This document shows positions 641 to 13,974 of a DNA stretch of 26,722 nucleotides, piece by piece. The stretch comes from a virus (lineage: Duplodnaviria > Caudoviricetes): positions 1 to 26,722 of IMG/VR virus record IMGVR_UViG_3300011405_000023, one strand, 5' to 3'. A model generated the notes under the pieces. The model saw only the letters and a program-made list of their open reading frames with translations, was not told the origin of the DNA and searched no databases. Position 1 is the first letter of the stretch, and each line of letters begins with the position of its first letter. The position numbers and the translations under genes were made by a program.

Positions 641-1021
641 ATGAATTTATTTCAAGAAGCTTCAAGAAAGAAGTATCGTTTTGGTGGAACCAAAGGAACA
701 GTTAACACAGAGGATTTGTGGGAGCTAAAGTTAGAGGATTTGAACACAATTGCCAAAGACCTCAACAGACAAATTAAGGCAGGAGATGAAGAAAACTTCA
801 TTTCTAAACGTTCAACAGCTAATACAGAGCTTAGTAACAAGTTTGAGCTTGTTAAAGAAGTTATTGCTATTAGATTGGAAGAACTTGAGAAAAAAGCTCT
901 TGCTAAAGAGAGAGCAGCTAAACGTCAACAGCTTATTGAATTGATTGGCAAGAAAGAGATTACTGCTCTTGAAAGCAAATCAATTGATGAATTGAAAGCT
1001 GAGTTAGCTGATATGGATTAA
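641..1021 (+). CDS. Conserved phage coiled-coil protein
   Basis: Start placed at ATG 641 (MNLFQEASRKKYRF) after an AT-rich leader; V.TEDLWEL motif and a helical C-terminus; followed by a hairpin. Confidence 0.75.
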   Translation: MNLFQEASRKKYRFGGTKGTVNTEDLWELKLEDLNTIAKDLNRQIKAGDEENFISKRSTANTELSNKFELVKEVIAIRLEELEKKALAKERAAKRQQLIELIGKKEITALESKSIDELKAELADMD

Positions 1022-1803: not shown

Positions 1804-1923
1804 ATGATAGAACAATTACTTAAAGAACATGGTTGGATTATAGCTCCAATTGTTATAATTTTACTTATCTTTGCCTCCTATACGTTACATAAACGTATGG
1901 AAGGTGATGATGAGGATGAATAG
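1804..1923 (+). CDS. Small single-pass membrane protein (39 aa, absent from the ORF track)
   Basis: Translated by hand: MIEQLLKEHGWIIAPIVIILLIFASYTLHKRMEGDDEDE; fills the gap between two genes. Confidence 0.6.
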   Translation: MIEQLLKEHGWIIAPIVIILLIFASYTLHKRMEGDDEDE

Positions 1924-1941
1924 AAACCCTTATAATTACAT

Positions 1942-2478
1942 ATGAAAACGAACGAACAAATTTTAGAGAGATACTTATCTCCAGATTCAGTAGACATTTT
2001 TAATGCTCAAAGAATCAGTTTATTGTGTATGCTTCCTTACCTTATGGCTAAGCCATATTTAGAAGCAAGTTACGTAACAGCTTACGAAGATGGTTCACTT
2101 CCTGAGGAGGAAAGATGGATAGAAGGTGTTGATATCAACAAACAGATATTAGACTTTCTTCCTGATGCTTATAAAGCCTTGGAAGTGACAAACGAAATGG
2201 AATGCCTTGAGGGCCTTCTATACCTTAAGTCCTGGATCTGGGCAGTTGATGAAGAATTTCATGGTGTAATAGAACCTTTGTTTGAGGAAGATCTCCTTGA
2301 CAAAGGGAAAAGTATCTTAGATGCTATTTCCACACACTTTGGTTATTCACCAACTATCCAAGACATTGACTTTGAGGAGATTCCTAAGGAGGAAGAATGT
2401 AAAGAGCCTTCAGAAGAAGTGCCTGTTGGAGATCCTGATTCAGAATCTTCATCTCCTCTACAAGCAGGAACTAATTAA
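1942..2478 (+). CDS. Acidic hypothetical phage protein
   Basis: 178 aa; helical core (AKPYL..KSWIW..GKSILDAISTHFG) and an acidic low-complexity tail. Confidence 0.7.
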   Translation: MKTNEQILERYLSPDSVDIFNAQRISLLCMLPYLMAKPYLEASYVTAYEDGSLPEEERWIEGVDINKQILDFLPDAYKALEVTNEMECLEGLLYLKSWIWAVDEEFHGVIEPLFEEDLLDKGKSILDAISTHFGYSPTIQDIDFEEIPKEEECKEPSEEVPVGDPDSESSSPLQAGTN

Positions 2479-2501
2479 AAAACTAACCTTTAGCTAAATA
2501 T

Positions 2502-2633
2502 CCAGGTATGCTCTGACTGGTCGAATAACAGATGTATAAGTCTTATGGCCTCGCAAGCCACAAAATGGTGGTATCCAGCCCACGTGACCTTGAGAGGGGT
2601 TATTGACTAATAATACAGATTGTTGAAAAGACT
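2502..2633 (+). ncRNA. Candidate structured RNA in the leader of the T9SS-cargo gene
   Basis: CCAG/CTGG stem (2502-2520); AGTCTT (2539-2544) pairs with AAGACT (2628-2633), enclosing TGGC-CTCGCAA-GCCA and GTGACCTT-GAGA-GGGGTTAT hairpins; locally GC-richer than its flanks. Confidence 0.4.
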
Positions 2634-2708
2634 AAATATTGCGTAATAGAATAATAGATTACTTGAAAAACCAAAAAATTTTTTTAATAATAGTAAATTT
2701 TATTTCAC

Positions 2709-5321
2709 ATGAAAAAAATTATACCATGTAGTCTCAAAAGATTGGGGTTACTATTCTTAGTTTTAGTAGCCTTTGCTACCAACAGTTCTTATGCACAGTG
2801 TAATGCAAGTGCTGAACCTAGATTTGTCTGTGCTGGACCTGGCAATCTCATTGTCTACACTACAGCAAGTGTTCTTTTAGATAATGGTACAACCTTAACT
2901 TGGACTATTACAGGAGATAGTACTGGTGGTGCTAGATTTGTTAACAACAATTCCCTAACTTCTACTACTACTGTTTCTTCTGGTTTGTTTAATAGCGTAG
3001 CTGTACTTTTAGGACCTTTATCTGGTTCTACTGAAGTTAGAATGTCTCTACCAGGTGATCCAGCAGGTACAGGGTGTGCTGCTTCAGTATTTACTAAAGT
3101 TTTAGTTATACAAGGTAGTGCTACTCCTGTAGATTGTCCTAATGATCTCACTACTGTATCAATTACTCCTGGATTAACTGGTACTAAACTAGGAACATCA
3201 GATCAAATTGTTCAATTCCCTAGTCTCCCTGGTGGTTGTGGACAATACACTTATAATTTAGTTACCTCTCCTGGTGGAGTAATAGTAGCAACAAATAACA
3301 CAGGTATCTTTCCTAACGTAACTCCACAGGATTATGTAATCAGAATTACAGACTGTGATGGATGTACTGCTACTTCTCCTATAATTGATTCTTCTGTTGT
3401 AGACCCTCGTCCACTTATTTTGACGTGCCCTGTTGAAGTGGACAGACCAGCATGTGCTTCTCAAGTAGAGCTTGAAGGTATCTTTCAAGCATGGTTAGCT
3501 ACATTTCAAGTTGCAGGTGGTTTTCCTCCAGTAATTACTGTTAGAAATCCTGATGGTATAATTGTACCTTTAAATGCACCTAATCATTGTGGTGGCAGTG
3601 TTACAGTTACTTGGAATGTAAGAGATAATTGTGGATATACTGATACATGTACACGTACATTCTTAGTAAGAGATTCTCTTCCTCCAGTACTTACATGTGC
3701 TCCAGGTGGTAATTTACCATGTAATCCTGAAATTCCTGGTCCAACAGCACCAACAATTACCTCAGCTTGTCCTACACTTCCATATACATATAATGATGTA
3801 GTTACTGGTCCTATGTGTGCTACAGTTCTAACAAGAACTTATACAGTAACAAATGAGTGTGGTCAAACTGCTACTTGTGACCAAGTGTTTAGATACAGAA
3901 TAGACCATGTTGCTCCTGTATTGCACAACGTGCCTGTAGGAAGAGATTTAGGATGTAATCCAGTAAATCTTCCAGCATGTGACCCTCTTGTAACAGCTAC
4001 AGACAACTGTGATGAATTCCCTGTAGCAGAATGCTCTCGTGGAACAATTACAAATACAGGTTGTAATTACAGACAAGTAATCACTTATTCTTCAATGGAT
4101 AGCTGTGGTAACAGAGTGTCTGAAGATGTAGTTTATACTTGGAAAGTAGATACTACTGCTCCAGTTGTAACATGTCCAGGAAGTAGAGATTTAGGATGTA
4201 ATCCTGCAACTCCAGGTCCTGGTGCAGCATCAGCTCTTGATGCTTGTGATGGTGTATTACCTGTTACTGTTTCAGTAGGTGATGTTGTAGCTGTTGATTG
4301 TTTAAGAAGATTAGTAATCACTTATAGTGCTACTGATGAGTGTGGAAACACAGGATATTGTGAAGAAGTAATTACTTGGACAGTAGATCTTATTGCTCCT
4401 GTTATTGAATTAGATCTTGCTCCTACTTTAGGTAATGATCCTACACTTGCAGAAATTTTAGCTGCATTAGGTACTGCTCATATAGTTGATGCTTGTGGTG
4501 CTACTTTAACTTTTACAGATGGACCTGTTACAGAAGTAAGTCCATGTCATTTCACCCAAACAAGAACATGGAGTGGTATTGACAACTGTTTAAATCGTGC
4601 AGCTGATAGAGATCGTACAGTAACATGGACAACTTCTGGTTGTGCAGAACCTAATGGATGTACTTTAGGATACTGGAAAAACCATACTCTAGCTTGGGAT
4701 TGTTATACAACTTGTACATTGTACAAAACTGTATTTACAGGTTCAACACTTGACCCTAATTTAACATTGCTTCAAGCATTGAATTTAGGTGGTGGTGCTT
4801 GTAACAACTTAGCAAGACAATCTGTAGCAGCATTGTTAAACATCTGTGATGGTACTTTAGACTATTCAGTTGCTGATGTAACTGCTTTACAAACTTTAGT
4901 TAATGCAGCTTTTGCAAATGGTACATGTGGTGCAGCTGGTTCTTTATTAGACAGATATAACAACTTAGGTGGTGCAAATCACTGTGATGTTGTGAAATCT
5001 CCTAACACAAATCAATCAACTTGTACAACTAATATCTCTACACCAAAAAAGGGGGTTAATGCTACTGGGAAAGTAGCACCTACTACGACCTTTAAAGCAT
5101 ATCCAAATCCTTTCACTAATGATTTCACAATTCAATCTAATACCATTAATCCTGTAAATATCAGTATTTTTGATAACTTAGGAAGAAGCATTGAAACCAG
5201 AACAGTGAATCCATCTGAATTTGATTTTTCAAGTTTTGGAGGTGGCTACCCAACAGGTATCTACAACATAATCCTTAATCAAGCAACAGAGACTAAAACT
5301 CTGAGAGTGATTAAACAATAA
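2709..5321 (+). CDS. Type IX secretion system (type A CTD) cargo; Cys-rich surface/adhesin-like protein with SprB-like and HYR-like repeats
   Basis: Sec signal peptide ending SYA|Q; SprB-like unit (ATPVDC..YTYNL..TGIFPNVTPQDYVIRITDCDGC); about five ~80-aa D..PPV..C / A.D.C repeats; GCTLGYWKNH domain; C-terminal FKAYPNPF..IFDNLGR..GIYNIIL..RVIKQ. Confidence 0.9.
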   Translation: MKKIIPCSLKRLGLLFLVLVAFATNSSYAQCNASAEPRFVCAGPGNLIVYTTASVLLDNGTTLTWTITGDSTGGARFVNNNSLTSTTTVSSGLFNSVAVLLGPLSGSTEVRMSLPGDPAGTGCAASVFTKVLVIQGSATPVDCPNDLTTVSITPGLTGTKLGTSDQIVQFPSLPGGCGQYTYNLVTSPGGVIVATNNTGIFPNVTPQDYVIRITDCDGCTATSPIIDSSVVDPRPLILTCPVEVDRPACASQVELEGIFQAWLATFQVAGGFPPVITVRNPDGIIVPLNAPNHCGGSVTVTWNVRDNCGYTDTCTRTFLVRDSLPPVLTCAPGGNLPCNPEIPGPTAPTITSACPTLPYTYNDVVTGPMCATVLTRTYTVTNECGQTATCDQVFRYRIDHVAPVLHNVPVGRDLGCNPVNLPACDPLVTATDNCDEFPVAECSRGTITNTGCNYRQVITYSSMDSCGNRVSEDVVYTWKVDTTAPVVTCPGSRDLGCNPATPGPGAASALDACDGVLPVTVSVGDVVAVDCLRRLVITYSATDECGNTGYCEEVITWTVDLIAPVIELDLAPTLGNDPTLAEILAALGTAHIVDACGATLTFTDGPVTEVSPCHFTQTRTWSGIDNCLNRAADRDRTVTWTTSGCAEPNGCTLGYWKNHTLAWDCYTTCTLYKTVFTGSTLDPNLTLLQALNLGGGACNNLARQSVAALLNICDGTLDYSVADVTALQTLVNAAFANGTCGAAGSLLDRYNNLGGANHCDVVKSPNTNQSTCTTNISTPKKGVNATGKVAPTTTFKAYPNPFTNDFTIQSNTINPVNISIFDNLGRSIETRTVNPSEFDFSSFGGGYPTGIYNIILNQATETKTLRVIKQ
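3942..4204 (+). repeat. Exact 20-bp direct repeat between neighbouring HYR-like units
   Basis: AGAGATTTAGGATGTAATCC at 3942-3961 and 4185-4204 (RDLGCNP), 243 nt (81 codons) apart. Confidence 0.85.
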
Positions 5322-5328
5322 AAAACTA

Positions 5329-5347
5329 TGGGGGTGAAAAGCCCCCA
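5329..5347 (+). other. GC-rich hairpin without a U-tract, just before tRNA-like element 1
   Basis: TGGGGGT-GAAAA-GCCCCCA. Confidence 0.6.
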
Positions 5348-5351
5348 ATAT

Positions 5352-5436
5352 GGGCTGATAGTGTAATCTGGCGAGCACAGCGTATACCAACATAAAATAA
5401 CACGCAAGTGGGGAGGTTCGAGCCCTCCCTGGTCCA
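5352..5436 (+). ncRNA. tRNA-like RNA 1: tRNA-Ala-like body with an expanded, non-canonical anticodon loop (or a pseudo-tRNA)
   Basis: Acceptor GGGCTGA/CTGGTCC (G1-C72, G2-C71, G3.U70; pair 7 mismatched), A73 then CTA; D-arm GTGT-AATCTGGCGA-GCAC; stem GCGT/ACGC closing an 18-nt A-rich loop; T-arm GGAGG-TTCGAGC-CCTCC. Confidence 0.75.
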
Positions 5437-5457
5437 CTAACTTTAAATCCTTTTATT

Positions 5458-6066
5458 ATGAAGAGAATTATTTTGAGCGCTATGGCGCTAATTGCATTCA
5501 GCTTTGCTAATGCACAGATCGTGACTGATGCTGGTACGTTTACCAAGCCAGTAGAGAGAACAACAATTTTTGAAGCTACTTTAACTCCTGATTTAACAGG
5601 TGGTGGTATCTTCGCATTATCAGGTGTCAGTGATGGCTTAGACCTAGTTGGTATCAGAATCAGACATTTTGAGACTGCTAACAAAGCTATCAGATATGGA
5701 GCACACTTATCTATGTGTGATTCAGGCATATCTGGACAAGACACTGATTTTGCAATTGCATTATCTGTTGGTTTAGAACGTCACAGAGCAGGCGCTGAAA
5801 GATTATCCACATATTGGGGATATGAGGGCAACGTAGGCTATGTTACTGAAAACGATGGTTATGGTGGTTCTACCTCTAAATGGGGTGTTGGTGCAAGTTT
5901 ATTTACTGGTGCTGATTACTACATCATACCTAAGGTGTATTTGGGTGCAGAGATATCTTATGGTGTAGCTGTTACAAACACAAAACCAGAACATGGTAAT
6001 GATGTTACAAGGATTGAATCAAGTCCTAACATTACTCCAAGTTTTAGAGTAGGTTGGCAATTTTAA
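5458..6066 (+). CDS. Outer-membrane beta-barrel protein, Bacteroidota type (probably 8-stranded)
   Basis: Signal peptide ending ANA|Q; alternating amphipathic strands; FTGADYYIIPKVYLGAEISYG; terminal beta-signal FRVGWQF. Confidence 0.85.
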   Translation: MKRIILSAMALIAFSFANAQIVTDAGTFTKPVERTTIFEATLTPDLTGGGIFALSGVSDGLDLVGIRIRHFETANKAIRYGAHLSMCDSGISGQDTDFAIALSVGLERHRAGAERLSTYWGYEGNVGYVTENDGYGGSTSKWGVGASLFTGADYYIIPKVYLGAEISYGVAVTNTKPEHGNDVTRIESSPNITPSFRVGWQF

Positions 6067-6078
6067 AAACCAGAAACC

Positions 6079-6177
6079 ATGTCACTCGTACTAGAAGCTT
6101 TTATAGCTGGTTTTATGGTGGGAGTCGTATTAACAGTCGTTGTTGTATTATTTATTAATACAATGCGCAAACCTTAA
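6079..6177 (+). CDS. Small single-pass membrane protein (32 aa, absent from the ORF track)
   Basis: MSLVLEAFIAGFMVGVVLTVVVVLFINTMRKP; accATG context; lies before the terminator. Confidence 0.55.
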   Translation: MSLVLEAFIAGFMVGVVLTVVVVLFINTMRKP

Positions 6178-6197
6178 AGTTTTTCATCTTGATAGGT

Positions 6198-6246
6198 GTC
6201 CTCACACGAGGACTGAAAAGGGTAAGCAATTACCCTTTTCTTTTTT
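6198..6246 (+). terminator. Intrinsic terminator preceded by an extra hairpin
   Basis: GTCCTC-ACAC-GAGGAC (6198-6213), then GAAAAGGGTAA-GCAA-TTACCCTTTTC (6215-6240) and T6. Confidence 0.85.
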
Positions 6247-6366
6247 GGGGAGATAGCCTAGGTGGCATATAGTATAAAACAAAGGGCAGGGCAAAAAAAG
6301 TACTGAACGTTGGTAGAGGTTGAGGAACTACCATTACTATAGCAGGTTCGATTCCTGGTCTCCTTG
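6247..6366 (+). ncRNA. tRNA-like RNA 2 (120 nt): acceptor stem and T-arm with an atypical, expanded interior
   Basis: GGGGAGA/TCTCCTT acceptor, G73 then CGA; T-arm CAGG-TTCGATT-CCTG; TATAGTA/TACTATA and TGGTAG/CTACCA stems; no canonical anticodon loop. Confidence 0.65.
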
Positions 6367-6404
6367 CGAGTTTCAAACAATTATTAATTTTAAACAATCA
6401 GTTT

Positions 6405-7280
6405 ATGTCAAGTACAAAAACAAATCGTGAGTTGCTTACGTCTATTAGATCGTACAACAAAGTGGCTAGAGAGAAAAAAGCTATCAAAGAAGGCTTTAGC
6501 TCTGCTGACCAAATGATTGCTCATTTAGAAGGGCAAATCAAGCTTGGGAAAGGAAACAAGCCTTGGTCAAATCCCAATTCTGTTAAGCCATATGTGGCTA
6601 CTACAGGTAAATCTCCTTGTCCAACAACCAAAGCTCCTGTAAGTAAAACTACTTCCAAAAGTAGACCAACAATCCATGTTGTGGATGTGTTGGACAGCAG
6701 TGGTTCAATGAGTGGAGGAAAACACAGCGCTGCAAAGAAAGGTATCAACATGGGAGTTGGTGGTCTGAAGGCTGATACAGCTAATGTGAATTACACCTAC
6801 ACTCTATGTGATTTCTCTGATGACCTTATCTTCAGACATGTTAAATCACAATTGAGTGAGGTTAAGGAGTTCAAAGGTAATACCAGAGGCAGTACAGCAC
6901 TGTTTGATGCTATTGGTACAACCATTGAGAAAATCAAAACAGATGGTGGTACTATCAAGTCTACAGACAAAGTTTTAGTGAACATCTATACTGATGGTCA
7001 GGAGAACGCCTCAAGACACTTCACAGCAACTGCTATTGACAGTTTGATTAAATCTCTTTCTGAGGTTGGATGGACCTTTACCTTTATTGGTACTGCTTCT
7101 GATGTAGCATATGCTCAAAGAGTGTTAAGTATCAAAGATTCCAACACTTTAGTGCATGATAACACTGCGAGAGGCTTGGAGAAATCCTTTGTTGCAAACA
7201 CAGCAGCTCGAACTTCATACTCCTCTAAGGTATCTGCAGGAGAAGATGTGAGCGAGGGCTTCTACAAAGACATTAACTAA
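6405..7280 (+). CDS. von Willebrand factor A (vWA) domain protein
   Basis: MIDAS motif VLDSSGSMSG, GSTALFDAIG and IYTDGQENAS; basic N-terminal extension with a P/K/T/S linker. Confidence 0.9.
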   Translation: MSSTKTNRELLTSIRSYNKVAREKKAIKEGFSSADQMIAHLEGQIKLGKGNKPWSNPNSVKPYVATTGKSPCPTTKAPVSKTTSKSRPTIHVVDVLDSSGSMSGGKHSAAKKGINMGVGGLKADTANVNYTYTLCDFSDDLIFRHVKSQLSEVKEFKGNTRGSTALFDAIGTTIEKIKTDGGTIKSTDKVLVNIYTDGQENASRHFTATAIDSLIKSLSEVGWTFTFIGTASDVAYAQRVLSIKDSNTLVHDNTARGLEKSFVANTAARTSYSSKVSAGEDVSEGFYKDIN

Positions 7281-11010: not shown

Positions 11011-11361
11011 ATGACAAAAGTAAAATTTGGAGCAGCCATAGAAGCTGCTAAAGAGGGCAAGTTGATTGCCAGAGAAGGTTGGAATGGTAAAGGAATGTTT
11101 GTATTCCAAAGACCAGAGGATACATTAAGTGTAGACTTTATTATAAACACAGTGAAGTCTTTGCCAGCTTCTCTTAAACAATACTATATAGGGCAACATG
11201 CTCATACTATAGCAGAAAAAGAGAATGGAAAAAGTCCTGAGGACACTCATGTGAAGTTCTCAGCTTATTTATGTATGAAAGCAGCTGATGGATCCATTGT
11301 AAATGGATGGTTAGCAAGCCAAACAGACATTCTTGCAGAAGACTGGGTAATCTTAAATTAA
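11011..11361 (+). CDS. tad2: DUF2829 / Thoeris anti-defence 2 family signal-sponge protein
   Basis: FGAAIEAAKEGKLIAREGWNGKGMFV at the N-terminus and GWLASQTDILAEDW at the C-terminus, the DUF2829 signature. Confidence 0.85.
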   Translation: MTKVKFGAAIEAAKEGKLIAREGWNGKGMFVFQRPEDTLSVDFIINTVKSLPASLKQYYIGQHAHTIAEKENGKSPEDTHVKFSAYLCMKAADGSIVNGWLASQTDILAEDWVILN

Positions 11362-11599: not shown

Positions 11600-12787
11600 A
11601 TGGAAGTAAATGAATTTATTGCAGGAATTAAAAAGTTTGGACTTATCATTGGAGGAGTCTTATTTTCAATTATTTTGGCAGCAAACTGTTTTGAGAACAT
11701 TCAAGCAGGGGAGATTGCTGTAATCCAGAGCCCTATTACAGGGGAATTGTCAGTAGTTACAACTCCAGGATGGGCCTGGCAAGGTGGTGGTACAGTAACC
11801 AAGTACCAAAGATCTAATCAATTGTGGTTCTCTAACAAAGAGGATGAGGGTGGCTCAGGAGCTATCAAGATTGGATTCAATGATTTTGGTGAAGGAACTG
11901 TTTCTGGTAGTGTAAGATGGTATATGCCTTCTAACAAAGAAAGCGTGTTGAAACTACACAGAGATTATGGTACTCAGGAATCTATTGATTTCAAATTGAT
12001 TAAACAAGCTGTAACTAAAGCTATTTACATGTCAGGTCCATTAATGTCATCAAAAGAGGCTGTGTCTGAGAAAAAGACTGCTCTATTGACATATACTGAA
12101 GATCAGGCAAATAATGGTATTTACAAAACAAAAGCTATTGTGAGCAAAGATACTTTAGCAGATGCCAATACTAAACTATTAGAGATAGTTTACAAAAATG
12201 GCACTCCTGAAATCATCAAACCTTCAGATGTAGCTACTTATGGTATTGTTTTATCTAACTTTACTATTAATGAAATCACTTTCTCTGAAGCTGTTACAAA
12301 ACAGATAGCTAGTCAACAAAAATTAGTGATGGCTGTGCAAACAGCTAAAGCTAATGCTCAGAAAGCTATTCAAGATGCAATCACTACTATGAAACAGGGT
12401 GAAGCTGATGCTGCAAAAGCTAAATGGGAGCAAGAAGTTATCAAAGCTAAGCTTGTAACTGAAGCTGAATCTCGTAATAGAGTTGCTGCATTGGATGTAC
12501 AAACAGCTGATTTGAGAAAGAGAAAAGATATTCTTGAAGGTGAAGGTATTGCTACCAAAAAACGCTTGATTATGCAAGCTGATGGTGCTTTGGACCAAAA
12601 ATTACAAACCTACAAAGAAGTATCTAAGTATTGGGCTGATGCTTTCAGCAACTATGGTGGTAGCTTAGTTCCTCAGTTTATGACTGGAGGTAATGGTGCC
12701 ACAGGTAATGCAGGTATAAACTTCATGGAGATGATGTCTGCAAAAGCAATGAAAGATCTTAGCTTGGATCTTAAAAATAAAGGCTAG
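11600..12787 (+). CDS. SPFH / Band-7 (prohibitin/flotillin-like) membrane protein
   Basis: N-terminal TM helix; GEIAVIQSPITG..; YGIVLSNFTINEITF; A/E/K/Q-rich coiled coil; VPQFMTGG tail. Confidence 0.85.
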   Translation: MEVNEFIAGIKKFGLIIGGVLFSIILAANCFENIQAGEIAVIQSPITGELSVVTTPGWAWQGGGTVTKYQRSNQLWFSNKEDEGGSGAIKIGFNDFGEGTVSGSVRWYMPSNKESVLKLHRDYGTQESIDFKLIKQAVTKAIYMSGPLMSSKEAVSEKKTALLTYTEDQANNGIYKTKAIVSKDTLADANTKLLEIVYKNGTPEIIKPSDVATYGIVLSNFTINEITFSEAVTKQIASQQKLVMAVQTAKANAQKAIQDAITTMKQGEADAAKAKWEQEVIKAKLVTEAESRNRVAALDVQTADLRKRKDILEGEGIATKKRLIMQADGALDQKLQTYKEVSKYWADAFSNYGGSLVPQFMTGGNGATGNAGINFMEMMSAKAMKDLSLDLKNKG

Positions 12788-12829
12788 AAAGTATGGTAGA
12801 ATTGAGGGGTTCGACTCCCCTCTCTTTCA
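12787..12829 (+). ncRNA. tRNA-like RNA 3: 43-nt minihelix (acceptor plus T-arm, no anticodon arm)
   Basis: GAAAG/CTTTC stem, 12-nt linker TATGGTAGAATT containing a D-loop-like GG, GAGGGG-TTCGACT-CCCCTC, A73 then CAA. Confidence 0.6.
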
Positions 12830-13133: not shown

Positions 13134-13424
13134 ATGAGCTACGCATCAGACTTTGGGCATGATATTCCACCAGACGATTGGGATGGTGGTGGATATAGAC
13201 GTAAGAGGTATTACTCTAACAGATTTACAGGAGATAATCCTCTTTTTAAAGTACACAATAAGAAATTTATTGAACTTGTATTTGAAACAGAGAAAGCATA
13301 TCTTCTTAAATTTGCACAAGGTAAGGCTTGGATTCCTAAGAGTCATTCTAGTATTGATACAGAGGGCTTGGTTGTTTACATACCTTTCTGGTTATTAAGT
13401 AATCTTAAATTTATTCAAGAATAA
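13134..13424 (+). CDS. Hypothetical phage protein
   Basis: ETEKAYLL..WIPKS..IPFW pattern of a small beta-barrel phage family. Confidence 0.7.
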   Translation: MSYASDFGHDIPPDDWDGGGYRRKRYYSNRFTGDNPLFKVHNKKFIELVFETEKAYLLKFAQGKAWIPKSHSSIDTEGLVVYIPFWLLSNLKFIQE

Positions 13425-13429
13425 ATATT

Positions 13430-13726
13430 ATGAAAAAATTATTTTTATATCTTAGAAGACTCCTCAGAAATGAAGAAGATGATCAGAATTATCTAACTAA
13501 TTTGGAAACAAAGCGCCTTTCTGAGCAGATTCTTAAGCAGCTTGATATAATGGAGCGTGATAAATTGGATAGAATCATGGAAAAGCTTCATATTAAGGAA
13601 GAAACTCTTAAAGAGGCTGAAGAATCCTATGATGAGGCAAAAAGGCTTTATCCAAGGTCTAATGAGTCTGCAGAGAGAACAGCTTTTGTGAGAGGAGTAA
13701 AATGGCAATATAAAAGAAGGTCATGA
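13430..13726 (+). CDS. Hypothetical protein
   Basis: ETLKEAEE..AFVRGVKWQ pattern recalled from Bacteroidota phage small proteins. Confidence 0.65.
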   Translation: MKKLFLYLRRLLRNEEDDQNYLTNLETKRLSEQILKQLDIMERDKLDRIMEKLHIKEETLKEAEESYDEAKRLYPRSNESAERTAFVRGVKWQYKRRS

Positions 13727-13974
13727 GTGATGAAATCAAAAAAATAGGTAATGTGGCTATTGGTCCCATCCTAATCAACCCATTCTCTAAAAAATGTATA
13801 GTTGGGCTATATGTTAGTGTTGACCTTATAACAAGGAGAGGCAAAGATGAATGGGTTGCTCGTGGTTATGTTGATTTCAGGGAGGGAAACACCACAGGAA
13901 GACAGAAATTTGAAGGAACCTCATTTGATGAGGTAGTATTATTAATTAAAAGCTTTATAGATAATGAACTATAG
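13723..13974 (+). CDS. Hypothetical protein
   Basis: ATGA-coupled to the previous gene; 83 aa. Confidence 0.65.
   Translation: MSDEIKKIGNVAIGPILINPFSKKCIVGLYVSVDLITRRGKDEWVARGYVDFREGNTTGRQKFEGTSFDEVVLLIKSFIDNEL

Follow-up and report, generated by a model that had tools for sequence, protein, structure and literature searches.

The closest described systems are found in two groups of phages. Cryophage (76 kb) carries three variable genes for type A cargo of a type IX secretion system (T9SS), and its authors proposed, from in silico work only, a hijack of the host T9SS with superinfection exclusion or competition (Bellas et al. 2020, PMC7468147). T9SS-domain genes were also noted in crAss-BACON phage contigs, one of them fused to BACON (de Jonge et al. 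2019, PMC6949934). The present work concerns a gene for a predicted type A cargo (the cargo gene) at positions 2709–5321 of IMG/VR virus record IMGVR_UViG_3300011405_000023, taken over the whole record (positions 1–26,722; 26,722 nt; the window). Other virus records are labelled G001–G006, phage or contig loci have L-numbers and protein relatives P-numbers.

The likeness to Cryophage lies in proteins of a Bacteroidota phage that bear type A C-terminal sorting domains (CTDs) and vary between phage variants (PMC7468147). The Cryophage cargos comprise one endoglucanase, one GH39 and one PA14 protein, whereas the window cargo is without a recognised catalytic or lectin domain; as far as the descriptions allow a comparison, it differs also in being a Cys-rich rod of crAss-like phages, with a phage-associated branch and intragenic shuffling. 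The crAss-BACON genes likewise carry T9SS sorting domains in Bacteroidota phage contigs, but those phages are from the gut, have BACON domains and carry the genes near the head module, and the window cargo has no BACON match (PMC6949934). SprB and RemA of Flavobacterium johnsoniae are T9SS-addressed repeat proteins; the cargo shares with them one SprB-related domain and a fold match to the RemA CTD (Z 8.7), and differs in having no PF13573, TIGR04131 or lectin match. SprB ends in a type B CTD and greatly exceeds the window cargo in length.

The novelty implied by the initial annotation of the window was too high, since a T9SS cargo and the exclusion idea had been published for Cryophage (PMC7468147) and T9SS-domain genes for crAss-BACON contigs (PMC6949934). 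Its statement that no phage T9SS substrate has been characterised holds for the literature searched, in which no experimental study of such a cargo was found (most subscription papers and the supplements of PMC7468147 and PMC6949934 lay outside its scope; the latter may list related genes). New here is a non-enzymatic, phage-specific, domain-shuffled cargo family. The cargo gene is almost certainly a phage gene, and its product is likely to be secreted through the host T9SS. The favoured explanation is that a rod displayed on the infected cell may exclude rival phages (probability about 0.4).

The cargo gene and its predicted export signals

The gene is divided as follows.
2709–5321, plus strand: cargo coding sequence, T9SS type A cargo-like, 870 aa (open reading frame and CTD profiles)
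2709–2795, plus strand: predicted Sec signal peptide, residues 1–29, Gln at +1 (hydropathy and pattern)
2799–3110, plus strand: D1, N-terminal beta domain, residues 31–134, predicted distal tip
3111–3404, plus strand: D2, beta domain related to SprB-type repeats, residues 135–232
3384–3395, no strand: recombination breakpoint between the tip (D1–D2) and the stalk (informative sites)
3405–4640, plus strand: five Cys-rich HYR-like beta repeats, residues 233–644, predicted stalk
4641–5003, plus strand: GYWKNH helical domain, residues 645–765, 8 Cys, most conserved part
5004–5078, plus strand: low-confidence linker before the CTD (model confidence)
5079–5318, plus strand: type A T9SS C-terminal sorting domain (TIGR04183, PF18962)

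The open reading frame (ORF) begins with ATG at 2709 and its stop ends at 5321 on the plus strand, exactly as first annotated, and encodes 870 aa. The N-terminus is basic, and the most hydrophobic 11-mer of the protein comprises residues 12–22; hydropathy reveals no further membrane segment (no later 19-mer above 1.47). Cleavage before Gln30 was assigned by pattern (small residue plus Gln). Gln follows the signal in all 11 cargo N-termini examined, small residue plus Gln being the pattern sought, so that hydropathy and pattern agree with the Sec signal and post-cleavage Gln proposed initially.

At the other end, TIGR04183 scores 38.2 bits (cut-off 23) over residues 798–870, covering profile positions 2–72 of 72 at the very C-terminus, and PF18962 scores 30.7 bits (cut-off 27). 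The initial annotation had called a complete type A CTD while allowing that it might fail to score; in this hidden Markov model search both profiles lie above their curated cut-offs. The same search scored TIGR04183 in none of 14 control genomes. The type B models TIGR04131 and PF13585 do not match the cargo. The CTD is above cut-off in 10 of the 11 phage-context homologs scanned, the exception being a tandem paralog, and among relatives nonsynonymous polymorphism is below synonymous (pN < pS) within the CTD. Profile scans of the cargo yielded no BACON domain, no lectin or known ligand-binding domain and no recognised catalytic domain.

The fraction of G or C at third codon positions (GC3) is 0.14 for the cargo gene, the lowest among the 21 window ORFs (others 0.19–0.40); the bias to A/T-ending codons, first described as like that of the neighbours, is thus stronger than theirs. 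The cargo gene is second lowest in G002, G004 and G001 (of 39, 38 and 21 ORFs). In Flavobacterium an A/T-ending codon bias is taken as a sign of high expression, with which the bias of the cargo genes is consistent.

The type A CTD and the extreme codon bias suggest high flux, and this would suit two further uses of the protein. Released into the medium or on vesicles it could be a decoy that soaks up rival virions, or the flux through SprA and PorV could starve host cargo and gliding and so lower receptor display; loss of T9SS function gives broad phage resistance (PMC9804748). For a clog, the CTD alone would be enough, yet the GYWKNH domain is where invariant residues cluster, and tips are exchanged whole; such a decoy or load seems unlikely. 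Of the three purposes offered in the initial annotation, clogging of the translocon is the weakest, because the conserved and shuffled parts are the extracellular domains.

Evidence for a phage gene

The window record, from a freshwater-sediment phage that is probably crAss-like to judge by its relatives, is 21% complete and encodes PolA, DnaB, Sak4-like and Tad2-like proteins together with many PHROG genes, and the cargo gene does lie among phage genes as initially noted. The best GenBank matches of the window PolA are Lbo-JY46 and crAss-like phages (26–32%). Crassvirus capsid, portal and giant virion RNA polymerase ORFs are not in this 26.7-kb fragment. Relatives of the cargo gene are present in four IMG/VR records (G001–G004). 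A Crassvirus capsid gene is recognised by PF23898 in G001 (561 bits), G003 (97 bits) and G004 (94.5 bits), and G002 carries a portal and a 4720-aa ORF. G002 and G004 are 87% identical to the window in DnaB and 73–77% in PolA. More copies lie on metagenome contigs whose flanking genes are common to the window phage (L089, L091–L094, L096/L097 and L098), and on L099–L101, judged phage from gene content only. Ten groundwater or sediment DNA runs hold at least half of the words of 1900–6300, two of them flagged as possible sources. No match was found by tblastn of the whole cargo and of the CTD alone against 50,697 GenBank phage records, and PHROGs has no family for the cargo or for the outer-membrane barrel encoded beside it.

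The careful tree was built on the GYWKNH domain plus CTD, with 46 hand-chosen rows including 25 from bacterial genomes. The 11 phage-context and six unknown-context rows form one branch (support 100/100, length 0.65), within which none of the 25 bacterial-genome rows falls. A quick 98-row tree, which left out six loci and one protein lacking a motif match, agrees (SH-aLRT 100). Flavobacterium buctense and F. capsici are among the bacterial rows closest to it; with midpoint rooting, they can only suggest the donor. The barrel (59%) and the tail tree both point to Flavobacterium, and the probable host is a Flavobacterium-like cell.

All cargo domains but D1 have host counterparts. The nearest are giant, uncharacterised HYR_4C/GYWKNH/CTD surface proteins of Flavobacteriaceae, Hymenobacteraceae and Saprospiraceae, which share with the cargo its kind of stalk repeat, the GYWKNH domain and the type A CTD, with ∼33–46% identity in the C-terminal part. 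They are typically 1000–7800 aa long, contain no match to D1 and are divided from the phage copies by the long branch. Whole members of the cargo family have 616–1214 aa, compared with a median of 2959 aa in 139 other profile hits.

These counterparts could also point to a host gene gained recently and neutrally, or to an assembly chimera, as could the copy in L003 (10001–12615), which is split by a frameshift, an error or real, into two overlapping ORFs; the junctions moreover were seen at the level of contigs. Against this, L088 matches the window over 15,318 nt (99.99%) and L087 over 13,190 nt (99.8%), both across the two cargo junctions. L087 and L088 may share the source of the window, so the relatives are the stronger argument: many distinct phages have diverged, intact copies on the one long branch, and no whole-gene ortholog occurs among 77 bacterial loci (from a genome scan that kept the best 80 of 115 matches) or in 401 genomes of the genus of G049. 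Pickup or chimera is largely refuted and very improbable, and the initial placing of the gene in a phage stands, on junction-spanning contigs, relatives in phage records and a single phage branch.

Most cargo copies sit among early or replication-side genes, and in L003 and L101 the gene adjoins a structural or late region. The latter position would suit a virion decoration or tail accessory, in which the export tags were relics, and Ig-like rods are common on virions. But nearly every member keeps both signal peptide and CTD, the CTD has pN < pS, the 42 Cys of the mature part suit an oxidising compartment, and most copies are not in late regions; a role on the virion is improbable.

Domain architecture and predicted structure

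The full-length AlphaFold2 model (14-row alignment; mean pLDDT 70, pTM 0.30) is a chain of small beta domains followed by the helical GYWKNH domain, the linker and the CTD. Modelled separately from 80 rows, the last 230 residues reach a pLDDT of 87, and >80 across the CTD. The tail of this second model folds as an Ig-like sandwich; it aligns with two solved F. johnsoniae CTDs, those of NucA and FspA (Z 9.6, rmsd 2.2, 74–75 residues), and also matches those of mirolase, RgpB and RemA; the CTD sequence profile matches CTD chains in the PDB. The fold matches of this C-terminal model are dominated by the CTD, leaving the GYWKNH domain barely tested in the PDB. An ESM Atlas model of that domain resembles the C-terminal domain of plant PDF1 (PDF1_C, PF27764; TM 0.79), and it is also like unnamed domains found in other bacterial proteins.

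The GYWKNH domain named in the initial annotation is present at residues 645–765. Invariant residues among relatives cluster there, and pN < pS in the nine comparisons with relatives bearing it. The HYR-like repeats are borne out by PF23237 (HYR_4C), which scores 43.5 and 47.8 bits (cut-off 27) when summed over weak stretches, above the gathering threshold and weak per repeat. The cargo contains 43 Cys, 42 in the mature part and none in the CTD; the many Cys initially noted are thus counted, and their pairing into disulfides is inferred. The SprB-like repeats became one domain: PF13573 matches neither the whole protein nor its parts, and the likeness of D2 is indirect, so there is one SprB-related domain and not SprB repeats. 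The D2 region (∼139–226) resembles repeats of giant proteins in 87 of the 401 genomes, with up to 42% identity, and the surroundings of the best match score 36.8 bits with PF13573. Among the sequences compared, D1 matched solely members of the cargo family, and none of the 401 genomes has a stretch covering it.

A further viral family was seen in the ESM Atlas, an all-viral cluster of 52 members (∼707 aa) with SprB repeats, 17% of them with a T9SS tail; it is a possible second family of phage T9SS cargo.

Domain shuffling and distribution

In 150-nt bins the D1–D2 DNA of the window is 96–100% identical to L002 and L094 and 46–53% to L089, whereas the stalk and GYWKNH DNA is 82–95% identical to L089. 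At 3384 the informative sites are 280:21 in favour of L002 on the left and 114:310 on the right, where L089 is favoured; a break as strong arose in none of 5000 permutations. A second break lies near 5012, just before the CTD. Judged by these sites, the window allele is a recombinant of phage alleles. Relatives differ also in the number and type of stalk repeats. In P0226, P0245 and P0026 the GYWKNH domain is swapped for a different domain of ∼250 aa, with D1 and the CTD kept. The tandem paralog in L101 (1931–4489, plus strand) has the signal peptide and the same N-terminal domains without a CTD, and both it and P0282 end in a His/Lys/Cys-rich segment in place of GYWKNH and CTD. The N-terminal domains are thus kept also without T9SS export.

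The position of the gene varies too. The site holding it in L004, L089/L091/L092 and L094 (inverted in L094) is empty in the window phage, and that holding it in the window and L093 is empty in L002, L004 and L094. G001 (51% complete) is a distant relative: its capsid protein is 20% identical to that of G004, and it matches only two of 26 other window proteins, at <30%. Its cargo copy is nonetheless 62% identical to that of the window, with which it nests (100/96), suggesting transfer of the cargo between distant crAss-like lineages.

The distribution was scanned in 44 long records hand-picked from 160 loci. None scored above the TIGR04183 cut-off, including the 16 that are ≥90% complete (there were two sub-cut-off matches), and the cargo is absent from the closer but partial records G005 and G006. 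With none of the near-complete records of the wider clade scoring, the cargo gene is an accessory of a subclade.

Exchange of tips would suit a choice of ligands, and the main rival to exclusion is that the phage supplies an adhesin, a displayed rod by which the infected cell would attach to particles, biofilm or uninfected hosts, so as to set its progeny free next to new hosts. The architecture is a miniature of the host giant repeat proteins, D2 resembles SprB-type repeats, the runs that hold the gene are from sediment and groundwater, and the best PDB fold match of the full-length model is the T9SS-type grappling-hook protein GhpA, at a low TM (<0.2). However, no lectin or known ligand-binding domain scores, the hosts already encode much longer adhesins, and rapid tip exchange suits conflict at least equally. 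Adhesion is a possible purpose, though a doubtful one.

Expression and neighbouring features

The motif TAnnTTTG, the −7 box of flavobacterial sigma-A (PMC9723704), precedes the ATG by 30–35 nt in six of the 11 cargo genes, compared with nine of 275 other ORFs over the wider interval of −25 to −45. Most relatives would express the cargo gene from a host sigma-A promoter. A sigma-70 promoter scan was at chance level (12 vs 15.3). Contigs from RNA runs hold cargo pieces in all four runs examined (six listed) and also cover other window genes; these contigs may be DNA and are taken neither to prove expression nor to rank it.

Three features follow the cargo gene.
5329–5347, no strand: G+C-rich hairpin after the cargo stop, terminator-like on the minus strand, no U-run on the plus strand
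5352–5437, plus strand: tRNA-like element; acceptor, D and T arms present, anticodon arm degenerate; precedes the barrel gene
5458–6066, plus strand: outer-membrane beta-barrel gene, 202 aa

The tRNA-like element lies just 5′ of the barrel gene in five phages: the window phage, L093 (968–1049), L002 (17614–17689), L004 (18642–18721) and L094, which has two copies (690–777 and 818–899, minus strand). The acceptor, D and T arms are conserved, seven of their 16 pairs having two-sided changes, and the anticodon region is variable and unpaired. ARAGORN defaults and Rfam miss it in the window, where Rfam gives nothing at gathering (chance matches at E 0.7–4). It is possibly a tRNA mimic or a processing signal. 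A lone T-arm-like motif at 6295–6375 (plus strand) has no clear cloverleaf and is not conserved in the loci compared. In a distant lineage, L001, a tmRNA (12472–12800; relaxed ARAGORN) lies directly 3′ of the cargo gene.

The barrel is up to 59% identical to Flavobacterium proteins and co-occurs with the cargo in close relatives; none of the 16 near-complete wider-clade records carries it. One relative, 55% identical, bears the name ‘BT1926 family’ in its source. BT1927 of Bacteroides thetaiotaomicron is reportedly a phase-variable S-layer protein tied to phage resistance. A type B, PorP-like pairing of barrel and cargo was rejected as the default, because the CTD is type A and the two genes are 4.5–6 kb apart in L002, L004 and L094.

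Elsewhere in the window are a Tad2-like Thoeris anti-defence gene (11011–11361, plus strand; 79.1 bits), an SPFH/Band 7 gene (11600–12787) and a vWA gene (6405–7280). L101 (125.8 kb) has near its cargo pair a PagL lipid A deacylase (12063–12620, plus strand; 46.9 bits, cut-off 23) and a GT2 glycosyltransferase (13213–13860, minus strand), which add to its genes for modifying the cell surface.

DISCUSSION

Sec takes type A cargo across the inner membrane; PorV then receives it and PorU cleaves it, with attachment to anionic lipopolysaccharide (A-LPS) in Porphyromonas gingivalis (PMC11205867). On this pattern the phage protein, probably made in most relatives from a host sigma-A promoter, would cross by Sec and form its disulfides in the periplasm. 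PorV would shuttle it to PorU, and cleavage would anchor the new C-terminus after the GYWKNH domain. That domain would then lie at the cell surface, with the variable stalk setting the reach and D1–D2 at the distal tip, so that the infected cell would display a disulfide-stiffened, phage-made rod. The rod may mask or displace T9SS-delivered adhesins that may serve as phage receptors, and the exchangeable tip would set which rivals or host structures it engages.

Exclusion is favoured because Flavobacterium T9SS and gliding mutants are phage resistant, SprB and RemA being thought to be receptors (PMC9804748), and because lysis by crAss001 is delayed in a way that recalls a carrier state (PMC8375218); a similar delay would give time for display. 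Purpose is the least certain step of the explanation: if export is granted, exclusion has roughly an even chance of being what the rod is for.

Several points weigh against display with exclusion. Type A cargo need not be anchored and can be released instead, and the L101 paralog lacks a CTD while standing in tandem with a CTD-bearing copy. At the level of the clade the cargo is dispensable (0/16 near-complete records above cut-off). The tail structure is non-discriminating, because DUF3244 and FnIII domains tie with the solved CTDs in fold match (Z 8.5–10), and full-length Foldseek searches of the PDB and BFVD return generic Ig-like rods (TM ≤0.25) and point to no binding site or target. The window copy is itself without the TAnnTTTG box, and the six cargo genes that bear it include close relatives. 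The host was assigned from gene similarity alone, with no spacer or isolate link, and a carrier state for the window phage would be by analogy with crAss001.

A more far-reaching and tentative proposal starts from a host adhesin: crAss-like Flavobacterium phages that do not integrate would have domesticated it, making of it a surface rod confined to phages and shuffled among alleles which, with the barrel, would convert the surface of the infected cell via the T9SS and so exclude rivals. The PagL and glycosyltransferase genes of one relative might conceivably belong to the same conversion. If true, it would mean a long-lived infected state and an arms race between phages fought with tip domains.

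Should secretion be confirmed, this would be the first tested phage use of the T9SS for a protein of its own, as far as the papers searched extend. The modest size of the family allows it to be cloned, natural alleles of tip and stalk provide ready-made swaps, and T9SS mutants are available in F. johnsoniae, a genetic model within the probable host genus. The family would make the 2020 Cryophage hypothesis testable, and would bear on the persistence of lytic crAss-like phages alongside their hosts.

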